DNA of 45,859 bases from a virus. Taxonomy: Duplodnaviria; Heunggongvirae; Uroviricota; Caudoviricetes. Positions 1,690 through 45,859 of this stretch are shown here, one piece after another. The notes beneath the pieces were generated by a model. That model was not told the DNA's origin. It ran no database searches and was given only the letters and a program-made list of their open reading frames with translations. Position numbers and translations under genes: made by a program. The DNA is taken from the IMG/VR virus record IMGVR_UViG_2718218168_000002, one strand, 5' to 3'. Position 1 is the stretch's first letter. Every line of letters starts with the position of its first letter.

Positions 1690-1704
1690 TGGTGTCCCCT
1701 GCAG
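1690..1704. repeat. Prophage attachment core (attR side): 15-bp direct repeat of the argW 3-prime end
   Basis: tggtgtcccctgcag at 1690-1704 is identical to 44776-44790 inside the tRNA-Arg gene; lies just outside torI. Confidence 0.75.
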
Positions 1705-1777
1705 ACATCTACTTGGCGCGGCAGGGGATTGATTGGAATGGTGTTTTTTAGATGTGAAAAATATTTTACCCGCTATT

Positions 1778-1978
1778 TTACTCATTGGCGCGGCTTAAGA
1801 GCTTATTTTTGAATTCACAATGGTCACGATATAACCATCTTGCTCGCCCGTGGATAACTTTGGCTTTAGGCAGGTCGCCGGACTTAATCCGGTCATAGAT
1901 GAAGGTTTTACCGAAGCCAGTATCGGCCATGATGAATTTCAAATCAACCAGTGAATCAGGCTGTAGTTCGTGTTGCAT
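1778..1978 (-). CDS. torI: Excisionase / recombination directionality factor TorI (AlpA-like)
   Basis: 66-aa ORF MQHELQPDSLVDLKFIMADTGFGK..., recalled as KplE1 TorI; sits at the prophage end opposite the integrase. Confidence 0.75.
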   Translation of the reverse strand: MQHELQPDSLVDLKFIMADTGFGKTFIYDRIKSGDLPKAKVIHGRARWLYRDHCEFKNKLLSRANE

Positions 1979-1997
1979 GAGTGCTATCTCCGAATAG

Positions 1998-2013
1998 GGA
2001 ATCGAACCTGCAA
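1998..2013. repeat. 16-bp copy of the argW T-arm segment upstream of torI
   Basis: ggaatcgaacctgcaa at 1998-2013 is identical to 44790-44805, the segment of argW contiguous with the att core. Confidence 0.6.
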
Positions 2014-2302
2014 ATCAGGTAATAAAAAACCGCCATCAGGCGCTTGGTGTTCTTTCAGTTCTTCAATTCGAATATTGGTTACGTCTGCATGTGCTATCTG
2101 TGCCCATAGCATCCAGTGGTCATAGCAGTCGTTGATGTTCTATGCTTCGATAACTCTGTTGAATGGCTCTCCATTCCATTCTCCTGTGACTCGGAAGTGC
2201 ATTTATCATCTCCATAAAACAAAACTCGCCGTAGCGAGTTCAGATAAAAGAAATCCCCGCGAGTGCGAGGATTGTTATTCACCTTTGACGGCAAGTTGCA
2301 GG

Positions 2303-2590: not shown

Positions 2591-3372
2591 TTAACCTCCT
2601 GCGGCGGTTCCGGTAGAGGCATCCAGTACAAGGCGTTCCCTAACCACGATAAAGTGCCGTCGCTCAACTCCACGTATTCCTCTTGTACCTGTCCTGCCAT
2701 ATACTCGCCGTGCTTTGAATAAATTAAAATCCAATCATCTTGAGCGGGCATTCGCTCACTACAGCTTATCCAACCATCCGGAGTTACCGGAGAGTTGCCA
2801 CCCTGAACAGTAGGCATATCCGGACCTTTGCGAATCGCCCTGGCAAGATCGATTGGGTCGTCGTACAACCAGTCACCTGTTTGCGGATGATTGGCCTCTG
2901 CCTGTTGCGCCGCCCACTCCAGACCGTCTTTGTGTCCTTGAAGATAGTCCAGCGGTAACTCATCACTATTACTTACAGGTTCGGCCTGAAGCATGGCGGC
3001 GCGGCAGGCGTTCCAGCCAGCTGTTCGCCCAAGCGCGTAAACTTCAGATGGCTCAAGATAATCAATGTCATGCCCGTCCTCATCGTCGTTCTCAGGTAAT
3101 GCAGCAGGTACTACCGGTACTGGCGGAGCGGCGTAGACCTCAATAATTCCATTATCAATAGGCCATTCTCCATCCTTGAGATAGTCACTTGTGCCGTCAA
3201 CTTGCTGTTCTGCAATGTGGAAAGCGCCTATTGGTTTTGCTTCCAGCGATGCCAGCGCAATCCGTGCCAGCTCTTCCGCTTCTTCTGCTGGCAGTACAAC
3301 GTTGCTACCAGGTCCGTATGTTTCGCGCCACTCCTTGATTGTCAGCAGTCGCTCTTTGGTAATAGTGGTCAT
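2587..3372 (-). CDS. Hypothetical phage early protein (possible DUF551-like C-terminus)
   Basis: 261-aa ORF in the leftward early operon; C-terminal WISCSERMP motif recalls DUF551. Weak assignment. Confidence 0.5.
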   Translation of the reverse strand: MTTITKERLLTIKEWRETYGPGSNVVLPAEEAEELARIALASLEAKPIGAFHIAEQQVDGTSDYLKDGEWPIDNGIIEVYAAPPVPVVPAALPENDDEDGHDIDYLEPSEVYALGRTAGWNACRAAMLQAEPVSNSDELPLDYLQGHKDGLEWAAQQAEANHPQTGDWLYDDPIDLARAIRKGPDMPTVQGGNSPVTPDGWISCSERMPAQDDWILIYSKHGEYMAGQVQEEYVELSDGTLSWLGNALYWMPLPEPPQEVN

Positions 3373-6433: not shown

Positions 6434-6566
6434 TTTTGGGAACTCCTGGCTGATTAAGTACGTCGATGAGTCGTTTCCATCCGTCACGTAATTTGCGGGT
6501 GATTCGTTCAAGTAAAGATTCGGAAGGGCAGCCAGCAACAGGCCACCCTGCAATGGCATATTGCAT
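6426..6566 (-). CDS. cIII: CIII-like protease inhibitor
   Basis: 46-aa ORF below the track cutoff: MQYAIAGWPVAGCPSESLLERITRKLRDGWKRLIDVLNQPGVPKNG, matching recalled lambda CIII; AAGGAG Shine-Dalgarno upstream. Confidence 0.65.
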   Translation of the reverse strand: MQYAIAGWPVAGCPSESLLERITRKLRDGWKRLIDVLNQPGVPKNG

Positions 6567-6645
6567 GGTGTGCTCCTTATTTATACATAACGAAAACGCC
6601 TCAAGTGAAGCGTTATTGGTATGCGGTAAAGCCGCGCTCAGGCGG

Positions 6646-16495: not shown

Positions 16496-16586
16496 TTGAC
16501 GCGATGATTTATTCGGGGCTATATTCCCAGCACGCCAGCAAAATCTGGCGTCGGGATTGGAACCCCGGATAGAGACCGCGACAAAC

Positions 16587-16610
16587 ACACGCCGCGAGCG
16601 TGTTTTTTAT
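16587..16610 (+). terminator. Rho-independent terminator upstream of the ORF6N moron
   Basis: Stem acacgc/gcgtgt with loop cgcga, followed by tttttatt. Confidence 0.5.
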
Positions 16611-16769
16611 TGTCGTATGCACGCGCACATCTGAATTATGGTGGGGCGCATGGGGGAGCTGAAAAGCTCGCCGGTCGGTTTCCCGGTAGTTCCAACCCTG
16701 TGCGTCTCACCACCCGATGATTGGAACCTGACGGTGGTGATAGTTTAGAAACCACCAGAGGGCGTCATT

Positions 16770-18896: not shown

Positions 18897-19027
18897 ACAA
18901 AGCATTCGAACGATATATGCGCCAGCGTTATGGCAATCGCTACGATCTGACCCGCGATACTGGCGGTTTCTACTGCCGTGAGGTTGTGAAACGAATGTTT
19001 GAAGTGTGGTGTCATTGCAAAGGATAG
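18893..19027 (+). CDS. Small hypothetical protein between rusA and Q
   Basis: 44-aa ORF MNKAFERYMRQRYGNRYDLTRDTGGFYCREVVKRMFEVWCHCKG; its ATG overlaps the rusA stop. Confidence 0.35.
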   Translation: MNKAFERYMRQRYGNRYDLTRDTGGFYCREVVKRMFEVWCHCKG

Positions 19028-19038
19028 AGGGGAAGACG

Positions 19039-19527
19039 ATGAGCATAAGAGAACTAAACCTCACCAAAGAACAGCACGATTGGCTGAATGGCTGGCTTGA
19101 ACTGTGGGGAGCATGGGTTTATTCAGGTCGTCTTGAAAAGCGCATGAGCAGCGTAATAGCGAAGTTTATGGAGAGCGTAGAGCCGGGAAGAGTTATTACA
19201 AGGCCAATGTGTAATGATGATGATGGAATGTTGATTTCTCAGGTCGTCGATTCCGTCATGTACATTGACAAGAAAGCCTTTGGCATCCTCCTCAGCTACT
19301 ACGCTCATGGATCTTCCAAGCACGCCATTGCATCTTACTATCATCGTGTCGCAAGACCTCGCAAGATGTTATGCCGGGGCGGCGGGCGCATTCAAAAACC
19401 ATCGCTCGCAACCTGTCGCCGGGAAGTTGACGAAATCCTCAATGCCTCGTTGTTTATGATTTATCCGGCTCTGGATAGTGCGTTTAAAAACCGGAAACGT
19501 GTAGAGAAAATTAAACATATAGCATAG
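19039..19527 (+). CDS. Late-gene antiterminator Q-like protein
   Basis: Internal ATG (MSIRELNLTKEQHDWLNGWLELWGAWV...) of track ORF 19006..19527; sits between rusA and the lysis cassette; motif recalled from Q-family proteins. Confidence 0.6.
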   Translation: MSIRELNLTKEQHDWLNGWLELWGAWVYSGRLEKRMSSVIAKFMESVEPGRVITRPMCNDDDGMLISQVVDSVMYIDKKAFGILLSYYAHGSSKHAIASYYHRVARPRKMLCRGGGRIQKPSLATCRREVDEILNASLFMIYPALDSAFKNRKRVEKIKHIA

Positions 19528-19614: not shown

Positions 19615-20054
19615 GTTTGCACAACAGGTAAGAGCATTCTCCTTTATGGGGCTTGGCTTAAATGCACCGAGTGCTCTTATCGTTGTGGTGAAGCTCAATG
19701 GCGAGCTAGCAGATAGGCGACAGTGAAAATACTAGTCATGTAGCTGACCGCCGCGCGTACTGCAATCGGCAGCGCACCGATGGAAGCCGGTTCGATTCCG
19801 GCCGCCACAACCCAAACTGAGCCGTAGCCACTGGCTATCCTGAATTCATCAGTGATAGTTACGCTGCGGCCTTCTACACATGACCTCGTGAAAGCGGGTG
19901 GCAGGAGGTTGCGCTAACAACCCCCTGCCGCTTTGCCCGTGCATATCGGTCACGAACAAATCTGATTACTAAACACAGTAGCCTGGATTTGTTCTATCAG
20001 TAACCGACCATATTCCTAATTAAATAGAGCAAATCCCCTTATTGGGGGTAAGAC

Positions 20055-20378
20055 ATGAAGATGCCAGAAAAAAATGACCTGTTAGCCGCCATTCTCGCGG
20101 CAAAGGAACAAGGCATCGGGGCAATCCTTGCGTTTGCAATGGCGTACCTTCGCGGCAGATATAATGGCGGTGCGTTTACAAAAACAGTAATCGACGCAAC
20201 GATGTGCGCCATTATCGCCTGGTTCATTCGTGATCTTCTCGACCTCGCCGGACTAAGTAGCAATCTCGCTTATATAACGAGCGTGTTCATCGGCTACATC
20301 GGTACTGACTCGATTGGTTCGCTTATCAAACGCTTCGCTGCTAAAAAAGCCGGAGTAGAAGATGGTGGAAATCAATAA
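20055..20378 (+). CDS. S: Holin S (lambda type)
   Basis: 107-aa [46 protein letters not shown]..., recalled as lambda S with a dual-start MKM. Confidence 0.9.
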
Positions 20379-43457: not shown

Positions 43458-44615
43458 TCACTCCACCTTTTCATCAATCCAGTCCGCCCACCACTGCATC
43501 ATTTCTCTGCGCTTATCTAGATACTGAGCATGGTTGTAAATACCGCGCACAGATCCGCCGTTGGCATGTGCCAGTTGCACCTCAATCGCGTCAGCAGGCC
43601 ATTCGTGCTCGTTCATAATCGTGCTAAATTCATGCCTGAATCCGTGACCGCTTTCCAGACCCTCATAGCCGATTTGTTTGATCACAAGTAGAACCGCGTT
43701 CTCGCAGATTGGCTTCTTCTTATCGTTGCGCCCGGCAAAAACAAACTCTGATACTGGTTTGGTGATGGAGCTTAGCGTAGTGAGAAGTTCAACCACCTGG
43801 TCTGACATCGGGACCACATGAATTTTGCGTCCCTTCATCACACTGGCGTCGATGGTGATAATCCTGTTTTCAAAATCGACGTTCTTCCATAGCATGGAAC
43901 GAAGCTCTTTCGTTCTTAGGGCTGTGTAGCGTAAAACTTTGGTCGCAATGAGCGATACGATACTTCCTGAAAATGTTGCCAGTGCTTTGTTGAATGCCGG
44001 GATCTGGTCTGCAGGAAGAAACGGGAAGTTCTTCTTGCGGTATCCCTTCATGGCGTCTGCAAGGTCAGGTGCCGGGTTGTATTTAGCCCTTCCGGTGACA
44101 ATAGCGTAACGGAAAACTTCGCCGCATCTTCTGCGGGCTTTGTTGGCTCGCTCCATTGCACCGCGATCTTCAAATCTGCGGATTACTTCCAGCAGTTGCA
44201 TCGGCTCAATATCCTGAATTTCAAGGCTGCCGATGATAGGTAAAATGTCGTCATCAAACATTTTTGCAAGTTCATTTGCATAGCCTACTGACCAGACTTG
44301 CTTCTTGTGCTCGTACCATTCCTTGTAAATGGCGCTAAAGGAATTGTTGTTAGACGAAGCCTTTTTCGCTTTTACCGGATCGATGCCAACCGAGATGTCT
44401 TTCCTAGCGGTCCATGCTTTATCCCTTGCCTCCTGCAAAGTCATAAGCGGATATTTTCCGACGGTCAGGATTTTCTCTTTACCGTCAATCTTGTAGCGAA
44501 GCTGCCATACCTTTTTCCCGGATACAGGAACATAAAGGTACAGGCCATTACCATCGAGAAGGCGGTATGGTTTTTCTTTCGGCTTTGCTGCTTCAATCTG
44601 CTTAACGGTGAGCAT
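43458..44615 (-). CDS. intS: Tyrosine integrase (P4/KplE1 IntS type)
   Basis: Start placed at MLTVKQIEAAKPKEKPYRL (track ORF extends to 44651); C-terminal catalytic region HGFRHEF...HANGGSVRGIYNHAQY; adjacent to argW. Confidence 0.85.
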   Translation of the reverse strand: MLTVKQIEAAKPKEKPYRLLDGNGLYLYVPVSGKKVWQLRYKIDGKEKILTVGKYPLMTLQEARDKAWTARKDISVGIDPVKAKKASSNNNSFSAIYKEWYEHKKQVWSVGYANELAKMFDDDILPIIGSLEIQDIEPMQLLEVIRRFEDRGAMERANKARRRCGEVFRYAIVTGRAKYNPAPDLADAMKGYRKKNFPFLPADQIPAFNKALATFSGSIVSLIATKVLRYTALRTKELRSMLWKNVDFENRIITIDASVMKGRKIHVVPMSDQVVELLTTLSSITKPVSEFVFAGRNDKKKPICENAVLLVIKQIGYEGLESGHGFRHEFSTIMNEHEWPADAIEVQLAHANGGSVRGIYNHAQYLDKRREMMQWWADWIDEKVE

Positions 44616-44775
44616 GGGTAAAAATCCGGTGGGTAAAATTATTTTATCCACTTTTTACCCGTCATGGAGTGCGGCTGTCAACGATCTGACGCGAACCATG
44701 ACGAACCGTGAATATACGGAAGGCTTGATATTCAGGGGATTTTGCGGACTGGTACGGATGGGAGCGAACTGATAA

Positions 44776-44851
44776 ATGGTGTCCCCTGCAGGAATCGAAC
44801 CTGCAATTAGCCCTTAGGAGGGGCTCGTTATATCCATTTAACTAAGAGGAC
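44776..44851 (-). tRNA. argW: tRNA-Arg (anticodon CCU)
   Basis: Minus-strand cloverleaf: acceptor GTCCTCT/AGGGGAC, D stem GTTA/TAAC, anticodon stem AGCCC/GGGCT with loop CTCCTAA, T arm GCAGG-TTCGATT-CCTGC, discriminator A, CCA. Confidence 0.9.
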
Positions 44852-44926: not shown

Positions 44927-45859
44927 TTATGCTGGGTTTTTATCATTTTTCTTAATGTTTTCCGCACGTTCTGCTTTTTGGCGTGCTTCTGCTTTACGCT
45001 TGTTGCTCATGTCGTTACGAATCTGTGCATGACTCATTAACGCGAAGATAAAGGTGCCGCCGCAGATGTTCCCCGCTAAAGTAGGTAGTGCGAAGGGCCA
45101 GATGAAATCGCTCCAGTGCAGCGTGCCGTTAAACACCAGATAGAGGATTTCAACAGAACCGACAACGATGTGGGTGGTGTCACCCAGTGCAATAAGCCAG
45201 GTCATCAATATAATCACCACAATCTTTGCCGCACCCGCAGCAGGAAACATCCAAACCATAGTGGCGATCAGCCAGCCGGAAATGATCGCGTTGGCAAACA
45301 TCTCGCTGGGGGTGTTCTTCATCACATCCATGCCGATTTTGACAAATGCATCGCGAGTTTCTTCATTGAAGATAGGCATATATTCAAATGCCCATGCAGC
45401 AATACCTGTCCCGAGAATATTACCCAGCAGCACGACGCCCCATAATCGCATAAGTAAGCCGACGTTGCTCATTGTCGGTTTTTGCATGACGGGTAGTACC
45501 GCAGTCACGGTGTTTTCGGTAAATAATTGCTGGCGGGCCATAATGACGATAATAAAACCAAAGGTATAACCGAGATTCTCCAGTAAGAAGCTGCCTGGCA
45601 CTCCTTCCAGTTCGACATGAAATATCCCTTTTGCCAGTAGCGAAGCGCCCATCGACAGACCCGCCGCAATGGCTGACCACAGTAGCGCCATTGCGTCGCG
45701 TTCCAGCTCTTTTTCACCATCCTGGCGGATATGCTCATGAATTGCCATCGCCCGGGAGGGGAGTCGATCTTCATCTATTTCTATTTTTTTGCCGCGCTCT
45801 TTTTCTTCGCTCTCAACTTCAATTTCGTCGCTGTGTTGATCAATTTTGTCGTTGTCCAT
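44927..45859 (-). CDS. yfdC: Formate/nitrite-transporter-family inner membrane protein YfdC
   Basis: 310-aa ORF starting exactly at the window end; multi-TM with acidic N-terminus MDNDKIDQHSDEIEVESEEKERG; recalled as the K-12 neighbour of argW. Confidence 0.75.
   Translation of the reverse strand: MDNDKIDQHSDEIEVESEEKERGKKIEIDEDRLPSRAMAIHEHIRQDGEKELERDAMALLWSAIAAGLSMGASLLAKGIFHVELEGVPGSFLLENLGYTFGFIIVIMARQQLFTENTVTAVLPVMQKPTMSNVGLLMRLWGVVLLGNILGTGIAAWAFEYMPIFNEETRDAFVKIGMDVMKNTPSEMFANAIISGWLIATMVWMFPAAGAAKIVVIILMTWLIALGDTTHIVVGSVEILYLVFNGTLHWSDFIWPFALPTLAGNICGGTFIFALMSHAQIRNDMSNKRKAEARQKAERAENIKKNDKNPA

Follow-up and report, generated by a model that had tools for sequence, protein, structure and literature searches.

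A conserved tRNA T-loop look-alike in the torI leader of an argW prophage, a candidate element of excisionase control

We analyzed a 45,859-nucleotide (nt) stretch of DNA, IMG/VR virus record IMGVR_UViG_2718218168_000002 (the window, by which we mean the whole stretch), that carries a prophage inserted in the 3' end of argW, a tRNA gene. At the opposite end of this prophage, two pieces of argW flank torI, the gene of the recombination directionality factor (RDF) or excisionase. One piece is the core of the attachment (att) site. The other, here called the inner copy, lies in the torI leader, and its kernel GGTTCGATTCC(C), the box, is shown by alignment of leaders to be a look-alike of the tRNA T-loop that is held at one place in many diverged argW-targeting modules. 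We cautiously favor the explanation that the inner copy is an exapted tRNA-derived element controlling torI in cis, through occlusion of the Shine-Dalgarno (SD) sequence in the leader RNA and possibly also through protein binding. The observation is real but largely explained, and the conserved box is a modest, testable new lead on RDF control.

Results and discussion

Two argW segments at the torI end of the prophage

In the window there are two exact occurrences of the 15-mer TGGTGTCCCCTGCAG, one at each end of the prophage, where only 0.01 would be expected with up to two mismatches. The 16-mer GGAATCGAACCTGCAA has exact matches in the torI leader and in argW, against an expectation of about 2e-5 per 45.9 kb, and its only further match in the window, at 19784-19799, contains three mismatches. 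These matches are not due to chance. The two argW segments have base G44791 in common and jointly span 30 nt: the T-arm in full, with 2 nt of the variable loop before it and the 3' acceptor strand, discriminator base and CCA after it. In the tRNA sense, the core (CTGC-AGGGGAC-A-CCA) consists of the last four T-stem bases, the 3' acceptor strand, the discriminator base and CCA, and the inner copy (TT-GCAGG-TTCGATT-CC) consists of two variable-loop bases, the 5' strand of the T-stem, the T-loop and two bases of the 3' strand. A preliminary description of this DNA had correctly placed the left-end copies at 1690-1704 and 1998-2013, in the same order and orientation and with torI in the 293 bp between them (1705-1997). 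It was also right that the segments are contiguous in argW, but its argW coordinates (44776-44790 and 44790-44805) were 1 nt too low, the true ones being 44777-44791 and 44791-44806 with G44791 shared.

The same description regarded the argW segment as split into two partial copies. The arm adjoining the core, however, retains a degenerate T-loop continuation of its own, and the tRNA segment is therefore duplicated rather than split, the inner copy being an extra, second T-arm-like element. In many relatives this core-abutting P arm reads TTCGATGTnT followed by GCAGGGGAC, as compared with TTCGATTCCT followed by GCAGGGGAC in argW, in the same register (beginning GCAGG); the version in the window, GTAGATGTCT, is more decayed than those of the relatives. 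As read from these alignments, the phage site attP has a contiguous tRNA-like stretch of its own plus an additional T-arm-like box ahead of the excisionase gene (xis). ARAGORN and Rfam searches found only argW and no tRNA gene or pseudogene at the inner copy, whose identity to argW ends after 16 nt on both sides.

The inner copy is part of the phage

Homology to free phage genomes starts exactly at position 1690 and extends across torI as far as and beyond the start of the inner copy, which it includes. The attP region of Sf6 and HK620, between xis and int, holds core, torI and inner copy in one continuous stretch, and KplE1 of E. coli K-12 also has the inner copy, which is identical in all three. 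These alignments show that the inner copy belongs to the phage and is not a product of the junction. The preliminary description had allowed for its absence from all related prophages; it is in fact present in every classic member of the module family.

That description had also proposed that torI and its flank might be the relic of a tandem or nested integration. According to such an explanation, the arrangement would have arisen in this strain, when a second phage settled beside the leftover of an earlier KplE1-like element, and its sole support is the presence of two argW-like pieces in the same order and orientation. The same order of core, torI and inner copy is nevertheless found in KplE1 and in the circular genomes of Sf6, HK620 and other phages (N7 included), where it leads on into the early genes, and comparison with an empty site (see below) leaves a single insertion with one pair of cores. 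The free-phage comparison refutes an origin in this strain for practical purposes, and we assign it almost no probability.

The inner copy is located 29 nt upstream of the torI ATG, with a terminator-like hairpin on one side and the ribosome-binding site on the other. As compared with Sf6 and HK620, the hairpin has a 1-nt deletion (CAGGC-GCTT vs CAGGCGGCTT), which reduces its stem from five to four G-C pairs, and a consensus terminator scan did not call it. Similar terminators with other stems precede the box in loci L014, L017, L039 and L142. Homology to K-12 stops near 2028 and homology to the early-left region of lambda begins near 2021. Hence, the inner copy lies at the outer edge of the conserved int-attP-xis module.

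An attR of 135 bp suffices for excision in vitro. Its inner primer, K-12 locus L003 1593-1612, corresponds to 1782-1801 of the window, which leaves the inner copy about 197 bp out of reach. Because an attR ending at about 1801 recombines in vitro, the inner copy is dispensable for strand exchange. Of the two roles offered for it earlier, regulatory or arm-type, the first is the best reading of the present data, whereas an integrase arm-type site was rejected, as the 16-mer contains no TAAA motif and lies beyond that 135-bp attR.

Conservation of the box in diverged modules

We surveyed 36 genome loci from at least 20 genera or species of Enterobacterales, 35 of them with upstream sequence; all phage and locus modules compared have the order xis-attP-int and an argW-type core. 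Excisionase identities to TorI were taken from alignment A2, and 19 distinct leaders were compared in alignment A3. In 14 of the 35 loci (15 if a variant with two mismatches is counted), a box with at most one mismatch precedes the xis ATG by 26-36 nt, and all loci together give 33 box matches as compared with 1-5 in shuffles. Columns G5, T6, T7, C8, A10, T11, T12 and C14 of A3 (GTTC.ATT.C) are invariant, and the kernel of 11-12 nt occupies the same place in diverged modules with unlike flanks. Erwinia phage Midgardsormr38 has two tandem boxes, whereas Salmonella phages Emek and g341c and Erwinia phage phiEt88 have one each; in this order of phages, excisionase identity to TorI is 86%, 49%, 48% and 36%. 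In all four, GGTTCGATTCCC or AGTTCGATTCCC precedes the xis ATG by 26-29 nt and lies just 5' of CGGAGAT, and the neighboring bases differ. Across the box-bearing diverged modules, excisionase identity to TorI ranges from 36 to 88%.

A gene-blind pattern scan of IMG/VR (box-N(2-8)-GGAG-N(6-11)-ATG) returned 120 stretches. The ATG opens an xis-like open reading frame (ORF) in 81 of them, and nearly all others look like genuine tRNA 3' ends. A scan of viral contigs with the TorI alignment gave only 100%-identical copies. We also sought a contrast with modules at other tRNA genes, and the distant IntS relatives (F116-like phages, YeP4, VW-6S, S1 and phiV10) turned out to be without the xis-attP-int arrangement. 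Two further box matches, at position 442 of L010 and upstream of the endolysin gene of L218, were judged to be chance.

The identity to argW extends beyond the kernel in a lineage-specific manner: E. coli has TTGCAGGTTCGATTCC, Serratia has CAGGTTCGATTCCTG, and loci of Edwardsiella and Pantoea stewartii have ACAGGTTCGATTCC(C)TGT. The extensions thus run as TTGCAGG... in E. coli, ...CCTG in Serratia and Pantoea, and ACAGG...CCTGT in the Edwardsiella and P. stewartii loci. Such a pattern fits descent from a once fuller copy of the T-arm. One possible route is a nested argW integration in a remote ancestor followed by aberrant excision.

The box could then be a functionless relic of a second argW 3' end that nested or tandem integration with aberrant excision placed beside xis, its T-loop part either not yet decayed or spread together with the leader by phage recombination. 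The lineage-specific extensions speak for this, as does a block after the box that resembles the acceptor strand (CCGGAGATAAAA vs CAGGGGACACCA, 7 of 12 positions by eye). Furthermore, the box sits exactly at a mosaic boundary, a region labeled "boundary sequence" in the Sf6 record, and many lineages have lost it, L018 and L036 apparently through a deletion between CTGG repeats. However, the 11-mer is intact where excisionases are only 36-50% identical and the flanking leader bases are scrambled, a divergence that a neutral sequence would not survive. Nor would a decaying relic be expected to be duplicated in tandem, as in Midgardsormr38, or to occur in inverted copies, as in Yersinia. A neutral 11-mer would not outlast coding divergence of this extent, which leaves either selection or repeated exchange of leaders at work. 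We consider a relic without function unlikely.

Several arrangements of the box deserve separate mention. In Midgardsormr38 (L004, 2458-2484), the tandem boxes CAGGTTCGATTCCC are 16 nt apart upstream of xis. Yersinia loci L032, L033 and L035 have no box upstream of xis; at 3165-3189, inside the 3' end of xis, they contain two tandem reverse-complement variants, GGAAATCGAACC, with a period of 13 nt, and L032 has a further GGTTCGATC between inverted arm-type-like repeats upstream of int. The box-less leaders of L018 and L036 read ...TTTTTTATTGCCTGG joined to AGGAAAGCATG, as against ...ATTGCCTGG-CTTCCAGGTTCGATTCCCAAACTGG-AGATAAAACCATG in L014, which looks like a loss of the box by deletion between the CTGG repeats.

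A candidate role in torI expression

The module's integrase is always kept at a low, self-limited level, and excisionase production is therefore thought to decide when the prophage exits (PMC2951348). The Ansaldi group proposed RDF control as the main switch of excision, and in 2010 still drew the torI promoter as uncharacterized. In the explanation that we favor, the box would be what is left of a second copy of the argW T-arm or att site, exapted to act in cis on the expression of TorI and not on strand exchange. In the leader RNA, it would pair (GGUU..AUUCC) with the SD region (GGAGAU..AACC) and so dampen torI translation, and as DNA it may in addition be an operator to which a protein of the module itself binds. 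It would thereby help to hold down the level of TorI, the step thought to decide excision.

The predicted pairings are GGUU with AACC and AUUCC(C) with GGAG(A)U. Of 14 leader variants, 8 adopt this fold as their structure of minimum energy, and 91.8% of the cells are paired as compared with 32-60% when the partners are slid, whereas covariation does not exceed that of column shuffles. A number of observations weigh against this explanation. No hairpin measure is above shuffles, with weak z-scores of +0.5 to -2.8, and the variant in the window is without the outer GGUU/AACC helix and has an alternative pairing of UUCGA with UCGGA. Two unpaired bases of the box (CG) are almost invariant, and RNA pairing alone therefore does not account for the box. 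A scan of 1500-2500 for sigma-70-like promoters gave no match. About half of the related modules, including those of Klebsiella phage Chronis and Erwinia phage vB_EhrS_49, do without the box, which must therefore be dispensable. Finally, near-identical leaders are found in modules with different types of xis, such as L014 and Emek, so that the conservation could in part reflect horizontal exchange of leaders instead of purifying selection. We retain the RNA hairpin as a partial explanation only, one with which the folding models are compatible.

A coding explanation was also considered. In four lineages, the box and the xis ATG share a reading frame, but in the window there is an in-frame TGA and no upstream start codon. 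Moreover, third-codon positions are invariant and the two Midgardsormr38 copies are 16 nt apart, and this explanation was rejected on inspection.

The GenBank records of HK620 and Sf6 each cover the inner copy with a predicted promoter, which would make it part of a CII-dependent pI promoter that drives int during lysogenization. The HK620 features "promoter, phage integration" and cII site correspond to 1985-2023 of the window, and the Sf6 "pI" to about 1994-2021. In Arsenophonus nasoniae (L024), TTGCGTGTAATTGA occupies the box position in the xis leader and is closely similar to the CII-binding repeat of lambda pI. It suggests that different regulatory cassettes occupy the same leader slot. 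The sequence at the inner copy is nevertheless TTAC-N5-TTGC and not TTGC-N6-TTGC, and the scan of 1500-2500 matched no -35/-10 pair. In addition, the box is kept in unrelated types of phage (P22-like podoviruses, Erwinia phages) that need not share a CII protein, and the annotations in the records are predictions for a region where the torI promoter was, according to the Ansaldi group, still uncharacterized in 2010. We therefore consider a pI promoter very unlikely.

In a different explanation, the box would be an auxiliary site for the recombination proteins. It could be a T-loop-side mimic of attB for the core-binding or catalytic domains of IntS, or an extra RDF site, with a role in intasome assembly (for example in integration, attP x attB) or in repression of torI by IntS or TorI through looping. 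The modules that bear the box share their attB, argW, and while their arm-type sites (GGGTAAAA, GGGCATAA, TTGGGGGT) and RDF repeats vary, the box stays identical to the tRNA. The core-proximal arm also retains TTCGAT in the tRNA register, and the TorI pentamer GTTCG is found within the box. The tandem boxes with a 16-nt period in Midgardsormr38, the two inverted ones in the 3' end of Yersinia xis and the GGTTCGATC near int form a pattern that is typical of protein sites and that RNA pairing leaves unexplained. On the other hand, 293 bp separate the box from the core, the attR that suffices in vitro does not include it, it is missing the TGCAGG part that adjoins the crossover region, and modules without a box are otherwise complete. 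A TorI site in particular is weakened by the base that follows the pentamer. By inspection of P' arms from five lineages, the next base is C or T at each of the 25 RDF pentamers that were read (GTTCG[C/T]), whereas the box has A (GTTCGA); the inner copy has no partner phased at 10-11 bp, and phiEt88 has different RDF repeats but retains the box. We consider an auxiliary recombination site rather unlikely.

A more far-reaching variant is that the box mimics the attB T-arm, so that a reader of the argW T-arm, either the integrase or a host tRNA-binding protein, controls excisionase synthesis. We regard it as quite unlikely. If it is true, then, together with the acceptor-stem-like hairpin at the core (see below), the torI transcript or DNA would be bracketed by tRNA-like pieces, and the argW-targeting phages across Enterobacterales would have in common a tRNA-mimicry circuit for prophage excision.

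The favored explanation, cis control of torI, offers a concrete target that is cheap to mutate: a 12-nt candidate for control at the 5' end of torI that survives where excisionases are only about 40% identical. Should the box prove inert, it would still be a dated molecular fossil that records the origin of the xis-attP-int arrangement. The comparison also corrects a tempting misreading: the att site has not been split, and nothing in this strain points to a nested element. The literature on KplE1- and Kapi1-type modules that we covered, which does not include Menouni et al. 2013 and Panis et al. 2010, contains no mention that we could find of the identity between the box and the argW T-arm or of its conservation across genera. 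The former (PNAS) is said to deal with Rho-dependent termination and KplE1 prophage maintenance, and the latter (Virology) reportedly with the protein-binding sites of the intasome.

The prophage and its attachment site

E. coli SCEC020001 is free of this prophage, and its left flank, core and remainder of argW are contiguous. Its flanks are 98.5-100% identical to those of the window (455 of 455 positions on the left, 591 of 600 on the right). Hence, there was one insertion, 1705-44776, bounded by the 15-bp repeat, with the crossover inside that repeat. The alignment shows that the 43-kb prophage entered the 3' end of argW by site-specific recombination of the IntS type within the 15-bp core, and its ends match those of Sf6, HK620, CUS-3 and Kapi1. 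The core of KplE1 was published as 16 nt, CTGCAGGGGACACCAT (PMC2951348), and that of Kapi1 as 17 nt, with deletion of attB reducing lysogeny (PMC8787464). The earlier idea that only the core is the functional att repeat is borne out both by these published cores of 16-17 bp and by the contiguity in SCEC020001. The coordinates of all features are given in Table 1.

Table 1. Coordinates of argW, the prophage and its recombination module in the window
Feature	Position	Strand	Basis or remark
Inner copy, 16 nt equal to argW 44791-44806, TTGCAGGTTCGATTCC in tRNA sense, in torI leader	1998-2013	-	20-35 nt upstream of start codon
Kernel, T-loop box GGTTCGATTCCC; last C is T in argW	1997-2008	-	Invariant or near-invariant in 19 distinct leaders of diverged modules
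Terminator-like hairpin and T-run directly upstream of box	2024-2043	-	Alignment A1; homology limits
torI, RDF (excisionase), 66 aa	1778-1978	-	ORF; annotated torI in E. coli genomes
torI SD sequence GGAG, within conserved block CGGAGAT after box	1988-1991	-	Sequence; alignment A3
Two direct repeats TATTTTAC (GTAAAATA on minus strand), IntS arm-type-like sites at torI 3' end	1762-1781	-	
Core-proximal P arm, CCAAGTAGATGT in tRNA sense, degenerate counterpart of argW T-loop segment	1705-1716	-	
Perfect 8-bp inverted repeat, TCCCCTGC (1695-1702) and GCAGGGGA (1721-1728), 18-nt spacer	1695-1728		One arm inside core
Left att core copy TGGTGTCCCCTGCAG, displaced original argW 3' end, torI-side junction (attR in KplE1 literature)	1690-1704		Exact repeat; empty-site comparison; published core CTGCAGGGGACACCA(T)
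Right att core copy, 3' end of intact argW, intS-side junction (attL)	44777-44791		Exact repeat; empty-site comparison
argW, tRNA-Arg(CCT), integration target	44777-44851	-	ARAGORN; Rfam tRNA 63.4 bits
Prophage body, 43,072 bp, lambdoid/P22-like, with KplE1/Sf6/HK620-type recombination module	1705-44776		Absent from SCEC020001
intS, integrase; start taken as ATG 44615 (MLTVKQ...)	43458-44615	-	Mechanical ORF extends to GTG 44651
intS promoter and P' arm	44676-44769	-	Motifs as described for KplE1 sites I1-I5

Residues 1-65 of TorI are 100% identical to HK620 HkaC and Sf6 gp18, and the product of intS is 99.2% identical to the CUS-3 integrase. The -35 hexamer TTGACA of the P' arm is at 44676-44681, and the five TorI-type pentamers are GATCG (44682-44686), GTTCG (44692-44696, 44702-44706 and 44765-44769) and GTCCG (44745-44749). 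The motif of IntS arm-type sites is TAAA (PMC2951348). The window thus has a duplicated core CTGCAGGGGACACCA(T) at the argW 3' end, an IntS-type integrase beside argW with a TorI-type RDF at the opposite end of the prophage, and, judged by motifs, an intS promoter overlapped by TAAA arm-type repeats and TorI pentamers (GTTCG, GATCG, GTCCG). By its sequence integrity, the prophage is a candidate for excision by IntS, TorI and IHF. With its att core, it is an ordinary addition to the well-described family of KplE1, HK620, Sf6, CUS-3 and Kapi1 modules.

The inverted repeat that has one arm in the core is found in 23 of 29 distinct P arms (loci L001-L044), with spacers of 12-26 nt. Two lineages have compensatory variants in which it covaries with the host-specific core, namely CCCCTACA/TGTAGGGG in Rouxiella and TCCCTGCATA/TATGCAGGGA in Edwardsiella. 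The repeat looks like an acceptor-stem-like hairpin ending in ACCA on the 3' side of torI.

The 10-bp sequence TTGGCGCGGC is directly repeated, at 1713-1722 and at 1785-1794, the latter at the 3' end of torI. The first copy differs in three bases from Sf6, HK620 and K-12 (TTGAAGCAGC), which makes it equal to the torI 3'-end sequence; it may be a small conversion patch or a chance match.

Comparison with known systems

One of the closest described systems is KplE1 (CPS-53) of K-12, studied in the Ansaldi laboratory. It has the same target and core, a TorI that is identical over residues 1-65 and a similar type of IntS. Its int-side arm shares the TorI pentamers and the TAAA arm repeats with the window, int and xis are again at opposite ends, and the inner copy is present. 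However, the window contains a full-length 43-kb prophage, whereas KplE1 is a 10.2-kb remnant; its left flank carries a csc-type sugar transporter gene instead of dsdC; and its core repeat is 15 bp instead of 16, the flanking base being C and not A. From the core through torI to the terminator, the window is about 97% identical in DNA to the attP regions of the P22-like, argW-integrating phages HK620, Sf6, CUS-3 and Kapi1, which likewise lie between xis and int and have an identical inner copy. Nothing substantive differs from these modules, the window having only the 1-nt deletion in the terminator stem and three substitutions in the P arm.

A classification of the tRNA-derived att sites of tRNA-targeting integrases, with a 3'-end class among them, is said to have been given by Williams in Nucleic Acids Research (NAR) in 2002. 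Like the sites of the 3'-end class, the present phage carries the tRNA 3' end, restores the gene and has its crossover in the 3' acceptor/CCA part. Unlike the usual description of that class, it has a second T-arm-like element about 290 bp away in the excisionase leader.

In the control of lambda int and xis (pI inside xis, sib retroregulation), an att-adjacent cis element sets the Int:Xis ratio according to context. The present case is similar in idea only. The gene order here is xis-attP-int and not xis-int-attP as in lambda, there is no sequence similarity, and the integrase here has its own autoregulated promoter (PMC2951348).

Other features of the window

The left flank (1-1248) is occupied by a gene for a LacY/CscB-like sugar transporter, which the SCEC020001 annotation names an oligosaccharide MFS transporter. 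This gene stands where K-12 has dsdC-dsdX adjoining KplE1, and the right flank (44950-45859) is yfdC. Within the prophage, Rfam matches at the gathering level (6521-6579 and 16519-16717) comprise the lambda CIII thermoregulator on the minus strand, isrK, and the C4 antisense RNA with its a1/b1 targets. A small tRNA- or tmRNA-like structure is present at 19755-19813 on the plus strand, in intergenic DNA that separates the ORFs 19006-19527 and 20055-20378. Acceptor-like strands enclose its T-arm, which is perfect (GCCGG-TTCGATT-CCGGC); ARAGORN did not call it, and both ends of the Rfam tmRNA model match at 20.2 bits, under the gathering score of 47.

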